A stretch of 46,704 nt of DNA from Verrucomicrobiota bacterium (GCA_019236675.1 JAFAIO010000109.1:1-46704), one strand, 5' to 3'. Counted from the stretch's first letter, positions 2,695 through 43,927 are shown. Made by a program: numbers and translations. The notes: generated from the sequence alone by a model not told the origin.

Positions 2695-3095
2695 GGTGAT
2701 TTTGGTGAAGTTGCCAGTATCACCGAGTAGCCCCGGTCCAGACAGAGATTCATAACTTGAACGACAGAGCCTTGGGGCGCGTCCCGATCCGCCCTTATGA
2801 TGATTGACTTATCGGTTACCGGGTCCTTTTCGAATGCTGACCGCAACTCGTCCAAGGTCACGGCTTGATCCCGGTAGTAAATCCGTGGGAATGGGCCGGC
2901 GGTTACGGTGACGATCACGGAGTGTCCAACGGTTCCTAGAGTGAATTTCGAGAATGGCAGGTTTACGCTGATCCCGGGATGGACCAGAAAGGTCGAGCTA
3001 ACGACAAATAGTAGCAGCAGCAAACAAACGACTTCTACCAGAGGGACGATGAACAGAAGATAAGGATTGAGCCGGACCGCTCTTTCCAACTTCAT
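2691..3095 (-). CDS. exbD: ExbD/TolR-family biopolymer transport protein
   Basis: 134 aa with a single N-terminal TM and a periplasmic domain (ExbD/TolR-like pattern IIIRADRDAPQGSVVQVMNLC). Has 4-nt overlaps with both neighbours. Confidence 0.85.
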   Translation of the reverse strand: MKLERAVRLNPYLLFIVPLVEVVCLLLLLFVVSSTFLVHPGISVNLPFSKFTLGTVGHSVIVTVTAGPFPRIYYRDQAVTLDELRSAFEKDPVTDKSIIIRADRDAPQGSVVQVMNLCLDRGYSVILATSPKSP

Positions 3096-3766: not shown

Positions 3767-3827
3767 ATATCGAAGGGTAGCGGCAAGCGCAACTGCTCGC
3801 GTGACGAGCGGCAGGAGGCGGATCAAA

Positions 3828-3997
3828 GTAATCAGTAATCAGTAATCAGTAATCAGTGGTCGTTGGTCGGGGACAAATTCCCGCCTTGGGATAAAAAGCT
3901 GCGGTGGTCTTGGTCGATCCCGGTGCTGCCTGGCGTCCTCAAGGCCATTACGGCCGGTTTTTTTGATCTGATTACTGACCTACTGATTACTGATTAA
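3828..3997. repeat. intergenic hairpin element E1 with tandem-heptamer arms (GTAATCA)
   Basis: The left arm is GTAATCA x4 (3828..3855). The right arm is the inverse complement TGATTAC units, imperfect (3969..3997). They flank about 110 bp of unique sequence between mglA and exbB. Confidence 0.9.
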
Positions 3998-13871: not shown

Positions 13872-14001
13872 GCCTGAGGCGCGCTTCCGAATAGCAAATA
13901 GCAAATAGCAAATAGCAAATGCGTCGCGAAACCGAGCGACGAAACGCTCGATAATTTGCTATTTGCTATCTGCTATTTGCTATTCGGTGACGCGCCTCAG
14001 G
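13872..14001. repeat. intergenic hairpin element E2 with tandem-heptamer arms (AATAGCA)
   Basis: GCCTGAGGCGCGCTTCCG-(AATAGCA)x4 pairs with (TTTGCTA-type)x4-CGGTGACGCGCCTCAGG. The stem is about 50 bp and the apical hairpin is CGAGCG-ACGAAA-CGCTCG. It lies between the M23 peptidase and L,D-transpeptidase genes, both on the same strand. Confidence 0.9.
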
Positions 14002-19090: not shown

Positions 19091-19268
19091 AGGAGCTAGG
19101 AGCTAGAATCTAGGAGCTAGGAGGGGGTTATCCACGTGGTGGTGTCGGCGGAAAGAAGTGGACCTGGTAGACTGAGGGGACGCGCTAAGGTTCACCGGTG
19201 AGCGGCTATTGCCCGCACTGCGGTTCCGCAGACTCCTCCTAGCTCCTGGATTCTAGTTCCTAGCTCCT
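19091..19268. repeat. intergenic hairpin element E4 with GGAGCTA-type arms
   Basis: Left arm AGGAGCTAGGAGCTAGAATCTAGGAGCTAGGAGGGG (19091..19126). Right arm TCCTCCTAGCTCCTGGATTCTAGTTCCTAGCTCCT (19234..19268). The inner 19174..19230 is a fragment of repeat family R-B. Confidence 0.9.
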
Positions 19269-27950: not shown

Positions 27951-28076
27951 AGGAGTTCAGTAGTTGCCGGAGTTCAGAAGGACAGCGCTCCGTAATTGCA
28001 GCGATTATTGCCGGCGCGGAACGTTTCGGATTCTGAACTCCTGCAACTCCTTGAACTCCTGAACTCCTGAACTCCT
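27951..28076. repeat. intergenic hairpin element E6 with tandem-heptamer arms (GAACTCC)
   Basis: Left arm AGGAGTTCAGTAGTTGCCGGAGTTCAGAAG (27951..27980). Right arm TTCTGAACTCCTGCAACTCCTTGAACTCCTGAACTCCTGAACTCCT (28031..28076). It abuts the glnK stop codon. Confidence 0.9.
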
Positions 28077-30216: not shown

Positions 30217-30312
30217 AATGGGACTTATGGGACTAATGGGACTTATGAGTTAAAGCGTACTCCTACTTAGGAGTGAAATTACATAAGTCCTATGGGTCCC
30301 ATGAGTCTCATC
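30217..30312. repeat. intergenic hairpin element E7 with tandem 9-mer arms (ATGGGACTT)
   Basis: Left arm AATGGGACTTATGGGACTAATGGGACTTATGAG. Right arm ACATAAGTCCTATGGGTCCCATGAGTCTCATC. The central small hairpin is ACTCCTA-CT-TAGGAGT. A solo arm copy (GTCCCATTAGTCCCATGAGTCTCATCCGT) lies at about 18070..18098. Confidence 0.85.
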
Positions 30313-41086: not shown

Positions 41087-41167
41087 CCCAGTCCCTTTTT
41101 CAACTGGGCCAGGATTGTCGCTTCGAAGTACGCTGGTGGCACTTCGAGATGTTGACCGAAACTCTGG

Positions 41168-41626
41168 TCAGGCTAAGCGCATGGACCGCGTGGGTGGATG
41201 TGTCGGCATGGTGATCGCTAGCTGGGTGGGCGGGTGCGTCGGCATGGTGATCGCTAGCTGGGTGGGCGGATGCGTCGGCATGGTGATCGCTAGCTGGGTG
41301 GGCGGATGCGTCGGCATGGTAATCGCTAGCTGGGTGGGTGGATGCGTCGGCATGGTGATCGCTAGCTGGGTGGGCGGATGCGTCGGCATGGTGATCGCTA
41401 GCTGGATACTGTCACCCGCTGGTTGCCAGAGATGCATAGCAAAGCCGCCGTCTGTTTTTTTAGAGCCCGTTGTTTCTGTTGGTCTAAAAGTCCTAACGTC
41501 TTTCGGAACCGATTCATCCTTGCGGATAAATTTGCCGGTTTCGCGACCCAGATCGGGCATCGCATTGGCGGATGCCAGCGAGAGAGCACTAGATAGTAAG
41601 AGAGCAGTCAAGTGAAATACTTTCAT
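41168..41626 (-). CDS. secreted protein with six C-terminal 12-aa tandem repeats (QLAITMPTHPPT)
   Basis: ATG 41626 gives a good signal peptide (MKVFHLTALLLSSALSLASANA). The opposite strand is also open through the repeat but lacks a plausible N-terminus. Confidence 0.5.
   Translation of the reverse strand: MKVFHLTALLLSSALSLASANAMPDLGRETGKFIRKDESVPKDVRTFRPTETTGSKKTDGGFAMHLWQPAGDSIQLAITMPTHPPTQLAITMPTHPPTQLAITMPTHPPTQLAITMPTHPPTQLAITMPTHPPTQLAITMPTHPPTRSMRLA
41188..41403. repeat. 36-bp tandem repeat x6
   Basis: Unit GGGTGGGCGGATGCGTCGGCATGGTGATCGCTAGCT. The six head-to-tail copies have 0-3 substitutions each and no spacers. Confidence 0.95.
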
Positions 41627-41974
41627 AAAATCAGCCAATACGTTCTTTCCATGCAAGCCGCACGGAAAAAGCGCGAGTGCGTTGCCAGTTTTTGGAAACC
41701 GTTTGCAGTCACTATGGCTAGGCTAGTGAGCATGAGGGACCTAAGCCTTAAAACTTGGATTGGGACTGCTTAATTCAAGCGTCTTGGGGGTCCGATTGGG
41801 TAACCGCGAAATACTCCCACGCCGATAACTCCCATCATCCAATCACCGCTCCAATACTCCGTTACTCCATCACTCCGCGCCGCGATTTTGATGACGAGGT
41901 CGATTGCGAGGCGCATGACGCGCTGGTCGCTGCTGTAACCCGGTCGCCGCCCCTACGTTTAAAGCTTTGTAGAT

Positions 41975-42181: not shown

Positions 42182-42260
42182 GGCGCTCTTTCGCGTACCA
42201 GAGCCCCGCAACCTGCGAGCGAAATCTCTACCGTAATTTCATAACAAAATCATAACCACG

Positions 42261-42293
42261 TTGGGCAGGCTTGCGCCTGCCCAATGTTTTTTT
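42261..42293 (+). terminator. rho-independent terminator
   Basis: TTGGGCAGGC-TTGC-GCCTGCCCAA forms a perfect 10-bp stem, followed by TGTTTTTTT. Confidence 0.8.
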
Positions 42294-42480
42294 CGCGAAA
42301 GCGTCTCGAGCGCGAAGGTAAGGAGTGATGGAGCAACGGAGTAATGGAGTAATGGAGTGCACCCCGCTACGCGCCCTTATTTTGGTTAAATAGATTCGTC
42401 TTTGTGGCCTTTGCGTTCTTCCTGTTTAAGTTCCCTCTTTTTCACCATTTGTCCGTTGTTGCGGCAATTTCTAAAAGGCC

Positions 42481-42508
42481 TTGCGACTCTCGAATTCAGG
42501 GATACTGT
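42481..42508 (+). promoter_or_regulatory. candidate sigma-70 promoter upstream of the tRNA-like/tRNA-Lys/GIY-YIG array
   Basis: TTGCGA (42481..42486), then a 16-nt spacer, then TACTGT (42503..42508). It lies about 18 nt upstream of tRNA-like A. Confidence 0.3.
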
Positions 42509-42525
42509 TCCAGTCCGTTTTCCCA

Positions 42526-42592
42526 GGGTTGGTAGCTCAATGGTAGAGCAGCCCCGAAAGCTTTCGGGGTTGGTTCTGGGTTGGGACAAACC
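42526..42592 (+). pseudogene. tRNA-Lys-derived tRNA-like sequence A (hairpin-substituted anticodon arm, degenerate T arm)
   Basis: GGGTTGG-TA-GCTCAATGGTAGAGC-A is identical to the tRNA-Lys 5' half. It is followed by GCCCCGAAAGCTTTCGGGGT in place of the anticodon arm, then TGGTT. The T arm and 3' acceptor are not foldable (CTGGGTTGGGACAAACC). Confidence 0.65.
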
Positions 42593-42615
42593 TGAAGGGG
42601 ACGATCTCAGATTTC

Positions 42616-42687
42616 GGGTTGGTAGCTCAATGGTAGAGCAGCGCCCTTTTAAGGCGTTGGTTGTGGGTTCGAGTCCCACCCAACCCA
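42616..42687 (+). tRNA. tRNA-Lys (anticodon UUU)
   Basis: Hand-folded. Acceptor GGGTTGG/CCAACCC, D arm GCTC-AATGGTA-GAGC, anticodon arm GCGCC-CTTTTAA-GGCGT, variable TGGTT, T arm GTGGG-TTCGAGT-CCCAC, discriminator A. Confidence 0.9.
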
Positions 42688-42699
42688 CTGTTACGCAGG

Positions 42700-42954
42700 A
42701 TGGCGTGGGTCTATATCATTCGTGGGGCTTGTGGCCGGCACTATATCGGGTCCACGGAAGATCTCGATCGGCGTTTTGCCGAACATCAGCGAGGCAAAGT
42801 CCATTCCACCCGCCGCTTCGGTCAGCCGCTGGAACTCATCGCCAACAGAGAAATGCCCGACATCCAGTCGGCCAGAACCCTTGAGCGCGAGCTTAAAGCG
42901 AAGAAGAATCCGCAGGTCGCGATCTATTTGCTAAAGAATGAGTCTGAGCGGTAG
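42700..42954 (+). CDS. small GIY-YIG nuclease-domain protein, copy 1
   Basis: 84 aa. MAWVYIIRGACGRHYIGSTEDLDRRFAEHQRG...ERELK carries the GIY-YIG (here VYI/HYIG), Arg and Glu motifs. The ATG lies 12 nt after the tRNA-Lys 3' end. The TAG stop lies inside the D-arm of tRNA-like B. Confidence 0.85.
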   Translation: MAWVYIIRGACGRHYIGSTEDLDRRFAEHQRGKVHSTRRFGQPLELIANREMPDIQSARTLERELKAKKNPQVAIYLLKNESER

Positions 42955-43020
42955 CTCAATGGTAGAGCAGCCCCGAAAGACTTTCGGGGTTGGTTGTGGG
43001 TTCGAGTCCCACCCAACCCA
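42950..43020 (+). pseudogene. tRNA-Lys-derived tRNA-like sequence B (hairpin-substituted anticodon arm, no 5' acceptor strand)
   Basis: GG-TA-GCTCAATGGTAGAGC-A-GCCCCGAAAGACTTTCGGGGT-TGGTT-GTGGGTTCGAGTCCCAC-CCAACCC-A. The D arm, variable loop, T arm and 3' acceptor are identical to tRNA-Lys. The 5' acceptor strand is replaced by GIY-YIG coding sequence. Confidence 0.7.
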
Positions 43021-43032
43021 CTGTTACGCAGG

Positions 43033-43287
43033 ATGGCGTGGGTCTATATCATTCGTGGGGCTTGTGGCCGGCACTATATCGGGTCCACGGAAAATCTCGA
43101 TCGGCGTTTCGCCGAACACCATCGAGGCAAAGTTCATTCCACCCGCCGCCTCGGTCAGCCGCTAGAACTCATCGCCAACAGAAAAATGCCCGATATCCAG
43201 TCAGCCAGAATCCTTGAGCGCGAACTCAAAGCGAAGAAGAATCCGCAGGTCGCGATCTATTTGCTCAAGGATGAGCCTGAGCGGTAG
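43033..43287 (+). CDS. small GIY-YIG nuclease-domain protein, copy 2
   Basis: 84 aa with 77/84 identity to copy 1. There are 16 nt differences, 9 synonymous and 7 replacement. It has the same 12-nt spacer after tRNA-like B, and its TAG stop lies inside remnant C. Confidence 0.85.
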   Translation: MAWVYIIRGACGRHYIGSTENLDRRFAEHHRGKVHSTRRLGQPLELIANRKMPDIQSARILERELKAKKNPQVAIYLLKDEPER

Positions 43288-43325
43288 CTCGATGCTAGAG
43301 CAGCCCGAAAGCTACGAAAGCCCTG
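43283..43325 (+). pseudogene. tRNA-like remnant C
   Basis: GGTAGCTCGATGCTAGAGCAGCCCGAAAGCTACGAAAGCCC is a decayed D arm plus the start of the hairpin arm. Similarity then ends. Confidence 0.4.
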
Positions 43326-43506
43326 AGTCTCCTTGGATAGCAGCATCTCAGGTTCAATATCACAAGGCGCGATTTTTAAGGGAAGCGCTTTTTCCCGGCC
43401 TTCCCGTTCAATCAGCCGGTATCAGCTAAGCTCGGAAAAGATCAACGCGCCAAAAAAGCACTCGAACAGCCAAGATTAGGCGGATCCTTTGAGCAAAGGG
43501 ATATGG

Positions 43507-43689
43507 CTAGTGACCGACTTCCCGTAGATCCAGTTTCCGGCTCGCGTTATCAATATCGATCCCCGTAAGGTTGCCATCCGCGTCGTAGTCAAGGACCACG
43601 CCCTCGGAAACCTCCTTGCTTTCGGCGCTCGGTTTCGACGACAGATCGATGTAAAGAGAATCGGTCTCTGGGTAGTAATTCAGCTTCAA
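43507..43689 (-). CDS. DUF2283-domain protein (antitoxin-like partner)
   Basis: 60 aa. MKLNYYPETDSLYIDLS...EGVVLDYDADGNLTGIDIDNAS is the classic DUF2283 pattern. Its TTG start overlaps the TGA of the upstream gene (TTGA). Confidence 0.8.
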   Translation of the reverse strand: MKLNYYPETDSLYIDLSSKPSAESKEVSEGVVLDYDADGNLTGIDIDNASRKLDLREVGH

Positions 43690-43927
43690 GGTTTGAACCC
43701 CCGATCTAAAAACGCGTTATGTATGGTAACCTTATCCGAAAGCGGAACAACACGTAGGAATTTGCCCGGTAGCTCTTCGACCCGACCCCAGAATCGGTAT
43801 CGGTTTTGTTCCTGTAATTCCACTGGATGGGGGACTGGACGACGCGTATGCACATGTCTTTTGTGCGATAGGGTCGTTTTCGCATGACCTCATTCTCGAA
43901 ATACGCGGTGAACTGGTAACTGGGCAC
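43686..43927 (-). pseudogene. frameshifted small gene of the type paired with DUF2283 (DUF4258-like, family name tentative)
   Basis: The N-terminal frame MPSYQFTAYFENEVMRKRPYRTKDMCIRVVQSP runs into a C5 run (plus-strand G5, 43829..43833). The conserved-looking C-terminus VELQEQNRYRFWGRVEELPGKFLRVVPLSDKVTIHNAFLDRGFKP continues in another frame to TGA 43686. One extra C restores an 81-aa ORF. Confidence 0.65.

Follow-up and report, generated by a model that had tools for sequence, protein, structure and literature searches.

What is a bacterial tRNA gene doing between incomplete copies of itself, with a small nuclease gene directly behind it and a second such gene behind one of the copies? The question is raised by a locus in a 46,704-nt stretch of DNA from a Verrucomicrobiota bacterium (GCA_019236675.1 JAFAIO010000109.1:1-46704), which as a whole will be called the window, with positions counted from its first letter. 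There, a tRNA-Lys(UUU) gene shares an array with two open reading frames (ORFs) of 84 amino acids (aa) encoding GIY-YIG nucleases and with three tRNA-like sequences. A sequence-only reading of the window had given this layout and its coordinates, and every element was recovered with ARAGORN, Rfam, Pfam and repeat finders. Comparison with related loci places the array in a family of ~320-335-bp cassettes that sit at the 3' end of tRNA-Lys(UUU/CUU) or tRNA(CAU) genes, mostly in Verrucomicrobiota and especially in Chthoniobacterales. The sequences compared show that the tRNA 3' half recombines with its repeat, whereby the cassette unit is gained, lost and amplified in tandem, and that the upstream units carrying the tRNA 5' half behave likewise. 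To account for this we favor a recombination-driven cassette of the homing type, in which the tRNA halves would serve as homology arms, and we give this interpretation, including the nuclease-driven homing that we infer, an even chance of being correct. The parts of the array, all on one strand, are these:

42526-42615, + strand: upstream unit U (tRNA-like A), the unit proper at 42526-42592 and then a 23-nt spacer
42526-42551, + strand: 5' part of unit A, tRNA-Lys positions 1-26, identical to the real tRNA
42552-42569, + strand: hairpin of unit A, CCCCGAAAGCTTTCGGGG
42570-42592, + strand: TTGGT and decayed T arm of unit A
42616-42687, + strand: functional tRNA-Lys(UUU) gene without encoded CCA (ARAGORN; Rfam tRNA, 77.9 bits; cloverleaf fold)
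42657-42687, + strand: 3' half of tRNA-Lys, the left copy of the direct repeat
42688-42699, + strand: spacer 1, 12 nt, CTGTTACGCAGG, from the tRNA 3' end to the ATG
42700-42954, + strand: GIY-YIG nuclease ORF 1, 84 aa (Pfam PF01541, E 1.2e-13)
42950-43020, + strand: downstream unit D (tRNA-like B; Rfam tRNA match 42950-43014/43020)
42950-42970, + strand: D arm of unit B, overlapping the stop of ORF 1
42971-42989, + strand: hairpin of unit B, CCCCGAAAGACTTTCGGGG, replacing the anticodon arm
42990-43020, + strand: tRNA 3' half of unit B, identical to 42657-42687
43021-43032, + strand: spacer 2, 12 nt, identical to spacer 1
43033-43287, + strand: GIY-YIG nuclease ORF 2, 84 aa (Pfam PF01541, E 7.4e-13), 92% identical to ORF 1
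43283-43325 (end approximate), + strand: terminal decayed D unit (remnant C)

Both ORFs start 12 nt past a tRNA-type 3' end, and their TAG stops lie within GGTAGCTC, the 5' strand of a D stem. The stretch 42656-43311 is a tandem repeat of 333-bp period according to Tandem Repeats Finder (2.0 copies, 94% matches, score 1177), and a repeat search returns a 300-nt pair of 94% identity within the array. Unit A keeps its acceptor 5' strand and D arm intact, unit B is without the acceptor 5' strand, and remnant C retains a D arm, with 2 mismatches, and the hairpin in broken form, CCCGAAAGCTACGAAAGCCC, with the tRNA 3' half missing and no stable fold; the array in the window arose by expansion to two units, the last of them now without its 3' half. 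Beyond what the sequence-only reading described, A and B carry one and the same palindromic hairpin in place of the anticodon arm, CCCCGAAAG(A)CTTTCGGGG, and it is this hairpin that marks the entire family. When this hairpin was sought across the whole window, no copy besides those in A and B was found, and the tRNA-Val gene of the window has neither GAGCAG...TTGGT nor a cassette.

As to how tRNA-like these units are, ARAGORN finds only the real tRNA-Lys in the array and none of the others. Unit B alone exceeds the Rfam gathering score for tRNA (37 bits vs 29), its match spanning model positions 6-65 only and carrying an insert at the anticodon-arm position that is 11 nt longer; none of the tRNA-like units makes a complete cloverleaf by RF00005, A and C falling below the tRNA model. 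An acceptor stem of unit B completed by the 3' end of the ORF was considered and rejected for want of complementarity, and besides the hairpin and the T arm, the minimum free energy fold of the unit B region shows nothing but a small GAGC/GCTC hairpin. A group I intron or another known RNA family was likewise rejected, as an Rfam E-value scan of 42300-43500 finds tRNA only, and weak matches to YrlA, mascRNA and plastid models stem from the tRNA-like sequence.

Relatives were collected in a one-genome-per-species scan, which yielded 246 stretches encoding related proteins; the best 80 loci were examined, each related locus being covered with ±3 kb, and loci from metagenomes were added later (loci are cited below by their L numbers). 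The closest proteins carry Chthoniobacterales or Verrucomicrobia GIY-YIG annotation, and 74 of the best 80 loci are titled Verrucomicrobiota or members of that group (Chthoniobacterales, Spartobacteria, Pedosphaera), a few being labelled Acidobacteriota or Alphaproteobacteria. That homologs would be tied to tRNA genes had been anticipated, and 83 of 106 intact ORFs in fact begin 4-22 nt (median 9) past a real tRNA on the same strand, which is Lys(UUU) in 47 cases, CAU in 34 and Lys(CUU) in 2. Another 18 begin at a like distance past a hairpin pseudo-tRNA and are therefore members of arrays, and the other five lie behind a 5'-truncated tRNA or an ORF-less mini-unit, or at a contig end. Although tRNA-Lys is indeed a target, as first proposed, tRNA(CAU) is a target as well and had been missed. 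ARAGORN calls the CAU tRNAs 'Met', a provisional label, as one type closely resembles E. coli tRNA-Ile2. Several tRNA targets are in use, the ORF tree shows few switches between them, and ORF length across the cassettes ranges from 79 to 88 aa. A small number of cassette loci come from bins labelled elsewhere, namely L027 and L033 (Candidatus Acidoferrum), L008 (Terriglobales), L025 (Alphaproteobacteria) and L018 (an Akkermansia metagenome-assembled genome); these may reflect presence across phyla or mis-binning, and their ORFs stand on deep branches and are not recent transfers.

The architecture of the loci was read from a BLAST search of each locus's tRNA against its own locus. At nearly all loci the 3' half of the tRNA (positions ~42-73) is repeated ~20-25 nt past the stop of the ORF with 97-100% identity, the repeat being ~31-35 nt long and comprising the T arm and the 3' acceptor strand of the local tRNA. 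In ~55% of loci there is also a repeat of the 5' half (positions 1-26), ~90 nt upstream of the tRNA; these upstream units come in 1 to 6-7 tandem copies with a ~90-nt period (6-7 in L052), and the apparent junk within them is a diverged copy of the ~45-nt upstream flank of the tRNA (L117, L052). In upstream and downstream units alike, the anticodon arm is substituted by a 35-nt core, GAGCAG-CCCCGAA-NNNN-TTCGGGG-TTGGT, which is found behind almost every ORF. Over 150 sites the stem is exact in 133, GAGCAG in 133 and TTGGT in 136, and only the 4-nt centre of the hairpin is variable (AGCT in 40%, also AGCA, AGCC and others). Where the distal stem has changed, in divergent lineages, the changes are symmetric and pairing is kept (CCCCGAC/GTCGGGG and CCCCGC/GCGGGG; L063, L078). 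The core sequence does not depend on whether the adjoining tRNA is Lys(UUU), Lys(CUU) or one of the two CAU types, and this invariance points to sequence-specific recognition. The grammar of a locus accordingly reads as zero to seven copies of a unit made of 5' half, hairpin and decayed rest, then the real tRNA, then one to three copies of a unit made of spacer, ORF, GAGCAG preceded by a D-arm remnant, hairpin and 3' half.

The core, being a palindrome whose invariant stem strands are separated by a variable 4-nt centre, might also be the recombination or cleavage site of a site-specific mobile element, comparable to att, attC or the subterminal hairpins of IS200-type elements. Such an element would consist of the nuclease alone, a GIY-YIG dimer cutting the core so that a ~330-bp circle is excised and re-integrates at tRNA genes with GAGCAG...TTGGT. 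These two motifs do flank the anticodon arm in all host tRNAs, and the units are circularly permuted, with rare permutations at L002, L018, L074 and L038. However, no strand-transfer activity is known for the GIY-YIG domain, searches turned up no copy that was remote from tRNA genes or carried by plasmid-like or viral DNA, and homologous recombination between the repeats accounts for all observed states, so that we consider such an element very improbable.

Some further peculiarities of the hairpin and of unit order deserve mention. The loop of the hairpin is in places enlarged by a nested, diverged hairpin-like copy, CTCGCGAAGAATTTCGGAG (L001 3273-3311, L202 ~2884-2924), and such a copy is also seen in L019, L026 and L051, just before TAGAGCAG; in L019 and L051, which have longer ORFs of 88 aa, the nested motif lies inside the coding 3' end. 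Growth of the palindrome, by self-insertion or duplication, seems possible. At L038 the order is changed, the real tRNA coming after the ORF and a decayed pseudo-tRNA before it, and at three loci a 5'-truncated tRNA with a real anticodon arm and 3' half precedes the ORF (L002 ~2930-3000, L018 ~1390-1457, L074 ~2640-2704), its left breakpoint near tRNA position 26/27 coinciding with the border where, at other loci, the anticodon arm gives way to the hairpin.

If the cassette is a discrete unit, tRNA genes with and without it should be found. Metagenomes were scanned with the 3' sequence of the real tRNA-Lys, a query blind to the ORF, and of the 120 loci obtained 17 have an ORF matching the N-terminal pattern and ~100 have none. 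A few more carry a variant or degenerate ORF: that of L110 starts MACVY and is otherwise apparently intact, that of L177 is without ATG, and L180 and L151 hold pseudogenes. L042 is a further locus with a decayed copy, a pseudogene or truncation. Upstream units are commoner where there is an ORF (11/17 ORF-bearing against ~9/100 ORF-less tRNA-Lys loci). One orthologous tRNA-Lys locus, with the same flanks on both sides, was found in four states:

tRNA only: L106, L113, L114, L156
U and tRNA: L097, L117, L119
tRNA, ORF and D: L077
U, tRNA, ORF and D: L072

In every one of these states the downstream flank starts 9 nt past the last copy of the 3' half. The comparison of filled and empty tRNA-Lys loci that the sequence-only reading had suggested therefore yields a difference of exactly one unit, bounded by the 3'-half repeat. 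A census of this locus gave 22 empty and 5 U-only cases, with the cassette in 2 species. Presence/absence polymorphism with clean boundaries is seen here, as in homing genes, and degenerate copies, U-only loci and ORF-less mini-units are found as in a course of invasion, decay and loss. Copy number varies as well: at the locus of the window there are 2 ORFs in the window itself, 2 in L201, 1 in L001, and an ORF-less unit plus 1 ORF in L202, and of the close relatives L016 and L030 the former has 2 and the latter 1. L201, which derives from another sample (P0002), holds the same array with both ORFs open, a near-identical ORF 2 and the same remnant C. Chance slippage can make tandem repeats, and in the window there are two copies only; the suggestion that we are looking at a static local tandem duplication or an assembly artefact is nevertheless refuted by the same architecture in ~100 independent loci from genomes and metagenomes, by the same array in an independent sample and by purifying selection on both copies, and we give it practically no credence.

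Beside these states, ORF-less mini-units of ~97 nt (3' half, ~42 nt, GAGCAG and hairpin) occur in tandem in L078 (1263-1460) and L038 (3275-3438) and resemble non-autonomous derivatives. At the CAU-tRNA loci, the whole module of tRNA and ORF is inverted relative to the same two flanking gene sets depending on the genome (L011, L053, L059, L062, L065, L066, L075 and L079 vs L010, L012, L019 and L023), with flank identity up to 88% and ORF identity ~70%. Cassette-free loci, for their part, carry other small palindromic insertions within the first ~100 nt past tRNA-Lys, such as TGTAGCCGCGTCTCTGTGAGACGCG...GGCCGCGGCTACAG; insertions of this sort were seen in L093, L095, L125, L126, L153, L160 and L162 (60-180 nt after tRNA-Lys) and in L089 and L183, and the 3' flank of the tRNA looks like a general hot spot for small elements in these genomes.

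The genes in the array are maintained. The 16 differences counted earlier between ORF 1 and ORF 2 divide into 9.0 synonymous and 7.0 replacement changes by the Nei-Gojobori method (dN/dS 0.22); with both copies under purifying selection, and both open in the same array of a near-identical strain, the view that the array is neither a dead remnant nor a decaying duplicate holds. Across all ORF comparisons, those of tandem copies included, dN/dS ranges between 0.06 and 0.32. Old tandem copies of the ORF have diverged to dS 0.6-2.4 (L005, L016, L026, L052), whereas the 31-35-nt copies of the 3' half in those very arrays are identical to the local tRNA or one base off. Because the longer ORF repeats have diverged while the short repeats stay identical, gene conversion is not homogenizing the locus and was rejected as the cause of the 3'-half identity; identity to the local tRNA, and the hairpin sequence, are therefore directly selected. 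Judged from these alignments, selected identity to the tRNA is what would be expected of a recombination arm, while a hairpin acting as RNA would not need a copied T stem.

A homing-type cassette would make use of these repeats as follows. The DNA target of the nuclease would be the tRNA gene or the hairpin core, and a cassette-free tRNA gene broken within or beside its anticodon-arm region would present a left end homologous to the donor tRNA and a right end homologous to the repeated 3' half of the donor. Repair from a cassette-bearing copy, in which the entire tRNA would provide homology on the left and the repeated 3' half homology on the right, would then install spacer, ORF, hairpin and 3' half by copying between the ends, which is the filled structure. 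The hairpin would make the second tRNA-like copy non-decodable and presumably non-cleavable, and its invariance suggests that it may also be the binding site of the protein. Arrays could form by misaligned repair or unequal exchange, and precise loss could follow from exchange between the repeats. Intact catalytic residues, and a modelled GIY-YIG fold near that of the structure-specific nuclease Slx1, support nuclease-driven homing.

Quite a few observations, however, weigh against it. Wherever two ORFs are at least 88% identical, their flanks are syntenic and just as similar, so that no recent horizontal movement was found, and many loci share flanks; the correlation between flank and ORF identity is weak (r 0.35) and confounded by paralogous array copies. 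Of the earlier proposal of a cassette targeting tRNA genes, the discrete unit carrying tRNA sequence with it stands, and of recent movement no sign was seen. Scans of viral contigs with the protein pattern and the hairpin core came back empty, giving no viral carriers. A long-term dN/dS of ~0.1 in both members of old tandem pairs is more than would be expected of a fixed selfish homing gene, and repeated loss would by itself suffice to account for the filled and empty states of the orthologous locus. A domain-only protein of 84 aa has no obvious means of recognizing a specific DNA site, and the real tRNA gene is unchanged in the filled locus, so that self-cleavage is not obviously prevented. 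Homing does not explain, in addition, the regular ~90-nt period of the upstream units.

Strong purifying selection on a vertically inherited protein would suit a system that acts at the RNA level. In it, the GIY-YIG protein would work on tRNA-shaped RNA, as a tRNA-directed nuclease or as a processing or surveillance factor, and the anticodon-less mimics would be its RNA partner, whether decoy, inhibitor, antitoxin or processing signal; the layout would resemble that of type III toxin-antitoxin systems, and the locus would be unstable merely as a consequence of its repeats. Conservation of the hairpin core and the tRNA halves does exceed the neutral rate by far, and the mimics copy the body of the cognate tRNA exactly, without the anticodon; some units are near-full pseudo-tRNAs that ARAGORN calls with 4-nt 'anticodons' (L003, L021, L034). 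The upstream arrays of up to 6-7 copies (L052) and the compensatory distal-stem changes in divergent lineages (L063, L078) are also in keeping with an RNA, as are the links of standalone Slx1-like genes to COG4123 and TrmH-like methyltransferases, from which a role in RNA was suggested (PMC1564403). On the other hand, most D units are without the acceptor 5' strand and most U units without the 3' strand, so that neither can fold into an L-shaped tRNA mimic, and an RNA structure needs no T stem identical to that of the local tRNA. Furthermore, ~45% of loci are without an upstream unit, the nearest structures are DNA nucleases, and PADLOC gives no match; we also count against this explanation that we know of no RNase in the GIY-YIG superfamily. 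An RNA-level system is, all considered, possible but doubtful. It is with the same reserve that we suggest, more broadly, that the anticodon-less core and the nuclease may form a two-part system in which a bare 84-aa GIY-YIG domain recognizes tRNA-shaped nucleic acid. Two forms of it are possible: a hairpin-guided cut-and-copy element living on tRNA genes, which would be nuclease-only and without recombinase or DNA-binding domain, or a tRNA-directed nuclease held in check by tRNA mimics.

How the nuclease gene could be expressed bears on yet another explanation. The spacers between tRNA and ORF (n=83) are 66% A+T and non-conserved, with a Shine-Dalgarno-like 4-mer in 3/83. In the window, a strong terminator at 42258-42287 ends the gene upstream of the array, and between it and the ORFs there is no promoter-like site on the + strand, for which reason a promoter inside the array was rejected. 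The ORF, having neither promoter nor Shine-Dalgarno sequence of its own, would be transcribed by read-through from the tRNA promoter, and 3' processing of the tRNA would free it as a short-leader mRNA. The alternative offered by the sequence-only reading, namely 5' processing by the tRNA unit, agrees with AU-rich spacers of 9 nt that have no Shine-Dalgarno sequence and probably describes the expression mechanism, but leaves the repeats unexplained. One could go further and regard the ORF as an ordinary gene of the host (it might encode a small Slx1-like nuclease, structure-specific or acting in repair) that relies on the promoter and processing of the tRNA in the manner of 'tRNA punctuation', the tRNA-like pieces being recombination by-products of a fragile, highly transcribed locus and the hairpin and T arm stabilizing or terminating the mRNA. 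The fixed 4-22-nt AU-rich spacer, the lack of Shine-Dalgarno and promoter-like sites, the second ORFs of arrays starting equally far past a pseudo-tRNA 3' end, and syntenic vertical inheritance under purifying selection would agree with such a gene, and the region 3' of this tRNA-Lys collects other small insertions too. Nonetheless, the gene is missing from most orthologous loci of close relatives, and neither the invariance of the hairpin across tRNA types, nor the exact match of the 3' half to the local tRNA, nor the recurrent upstream units of 5' half and hairpin with their enrichment beside the ORF (11/17 vs ~9/100) would be explained, which makes an ordinary host gene unlikely.

Homing by the cassette would depend on its protein. 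In both ORFs of the window, the PF01541 match covers profile positions 1-74 of 78 and lies above the gathering score. Aligning 32 diverse members shows Y5, Y15, H29 and E62 to be invariant and R24/R25 nearly so, residues that would be catalytic by comparison with I-TevI and UvrC. The AF2 model (pLDDT 89.5) has strands at 2-8, 14-19 and 45-52 and helices at 22-31, 35-38 and 55-67; the protein therefore has both the residues of the GIY-YIG catalytic motif and the beta-beta-alpha-alpha-beta-alpha fold. UPF0213, Slx1 and UvrC-N are the top Foldseek matches of this model, and a PDB profile search ranks relatives in the same order (BH0048, E 8.5e-10; EF2693, 1e-5; UvrC, 4e-4; Slx1, 0.02). No NCBIfam equivalog matches, and with 20 bits the match to the group I intron endonuclease model stays below its cut-off of 56. 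The protein is a minimal standalone GIY-YIG domain of Slx1/UPF0213 type, closer to UPF0213 and Slx1 than to homing endonucleases or UvrC, and its clade is a distinct subfamily with the N-terminus MAWVYILRG and ~35% identity to BH0048. The catalytic domain covers all 84 aa, so that the DNA-binding domain noted as absent is absent indeed, and no specificity module of the kind found in homing endonucleases accompanies it. The C-terminal 6-8 residues are non-conserved; going by the alignments, their codons are the decayed 5' part of the downstream pseudo-tRNA read to the first stop, and in L003 that pseudo-tRNA is still almost full length.

The arrangement had been thought undescribed, and no published description of the cassette, the hairpin sequence itself included, was found in the searchable literature; Rfam, PADLOC and PHROGs hold nothing for it either. 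The GIY-YIG of a paper on Tn7 and Tsy is unrelated. The closest precedent is SegB of phage T4, a free-standing GIY-YIG homing endonuclease whose gene is part of the T4 tRNA gene cluster and whose cleavage occurs in that cluster (PMC2330249). With the Seg family the cassette shares a GIY-YIG gene outside introns, among or next to tRNA genes, and a proposed mode of spread, break repair in which flanking sequence is copied along with the gene. Seg proteins, which are much larger, have a DNA-binding region. The present protein, in contrast, is an 84-aa catalytic domain only, is encoded on a bacterial chromosome and not by a phage, and has UPF0213 and Slx1, not Seg or I-TevI, as its nearest relatives by sequence and structure; a duplicated tRNA 3' half bounds its cassette, and an invariant hairpin stands in for the anticodon arm. 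UPF0213 and standalone Slx1-like proteins (BH0048, 1zg2; EF2693, 1ywl) have the same minimal GIY-YIG domain of 80-100 aa, and E. coli YhbQ and B. subtilis YazA are members of UPF0213. Many bacteria have minimal proteins of this kind, of which two structures are available, but we know of no function assigned to them. Dunin-Horkawicz et al. reported that prokaryotic standalone Slx1-like genes recurrently pair with a gene for a COG4123 methyltransferase, and that one such protein is fused to a TrmH-like tRNA methyltransferase, and suggested a role in RNA metabolism (PMC1564403). For UPF0213 proteins, no described linkage to tRNA genes, tRNA-derived repeats or the hairpin core was found.

Genomic islands and prophages that target tRNA genes by means of tyrosine integrases also insert at the tRNA 3' end and leave the tRNA intact, the displaced 3' part forming the direct repeat at the far end, which is what is seen here, and they too form tandem arrays and are lost precisely through the repeats. 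Unlike them, the cassette has no integrase or recombinase and is a ~300-bp insert encoding a nuclease only; its repeat is a whole T arm and acceptor strand behind a substitute for the anticodon arm, and there are extra upstream units of the 5' half. Type III toxin-antitoxin systems (ToxIN-like) resemble it in having short structured tandem repeats upstream of a small single-domain nuclease gene. The repeats of the cassette, however, are tRNA-derived and missing in ~45% of loci, so that the array is not universal, a real tRNA stands between repeats and gene, the fold is that of a DNA nuclease, and a PADLOC match is lacking. The tRNA punctuation of animal mitochondria and mascRNA offer a third likeness, in that the ORF is flanked by a tRNA and a tRNA-like element, starts nearly leaderless a few nt past the tRNA, and has its stop overlapping the next tRNA-like element. 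Here, however, the setting is a bacterial chromosome, and most D units being without an acceptor stem makes recognition by RNase P or RNase Z doubtful. The cassette is, then, akin both to free-standing GIY-YIG homing genes and to tRNA islands, without the DNA-binding module of the former or the integrase of the latter, and has in addition a hairpin core that neither has.

The attachment of one UPF0213-like clade to specific tRNA genes and a tRNA-derived hairpin gives an experimental entry into an uncharacterized family. If the homing-type reading is true, this would be, to our knowledge, the smallest self-propagating nuclease cassette described (~330 bp), and a case in which a domain-only nuclease gains target specificity by borrowing a host tRNA gene as homology arms. 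If nuclease and core instead form a two-part system, in either form, that would provide the first functional handle on UPF0213 (YhbQ/YazA), and should it act on RNA, a new kind of regulation based on tRNA mimics. The cassette would also explain odd tRNA-like pseudogenes with 4-nt 'anticodons' in abundant soil Verrucomicrobia, and assembly breaks near tRNA-Lys and tRNA(CAU) genes in the same organisms.

The neighbors of the array in the window (NusA, a HAD hydrolase, a cupin, an acyltransferase and DUF2283) are those of an ordinary chromosome. Annotation of ORFs and neighbors revealed no integrase or recombinase near the array and no further ORF inside the unit; with housekeeping genes around it and no intron by Rfam, the absence of integrase and intron context stated in the sequence-only reading was confirmed. 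Other repeats occur in the window. A 36-bp tandem repeat at 41190-41405 (6.0 copies, 95% matches) lies in ORFs that overlap on both strands, 41115-41615 on the + strand and 41168-41656 on the - strand, and would give the peptide repeat GGCVGMVIASWV or AITMPTHPPTQL, if either frame is real. Microsatellite-like tandem repeats of 7-9 nt, in 4-5 copies each, are scattered at 3827-3857, 13890-13920, 13954-13984 and 19091-19123, with further ones at 28033-28076, 30218-30247 and 42318-42358. Two of the microsatellites, ~35 nt apart, with the units AATAGCA and ATTTGCT, look nearly reverse-complementary, and one, GTAATGGA in five copies, lies ~170 nt upstream of the first tRNA-like unit. Directly 3' of the array, at 43507-43853 on the - strand, a DUF2283 gene (60 aa) overlaps a 55-aa ORF without a family match; this layout resembles that of a toxin-antitoxin pair, and a DUF2283 gene is found at the same position in L202 and L204.

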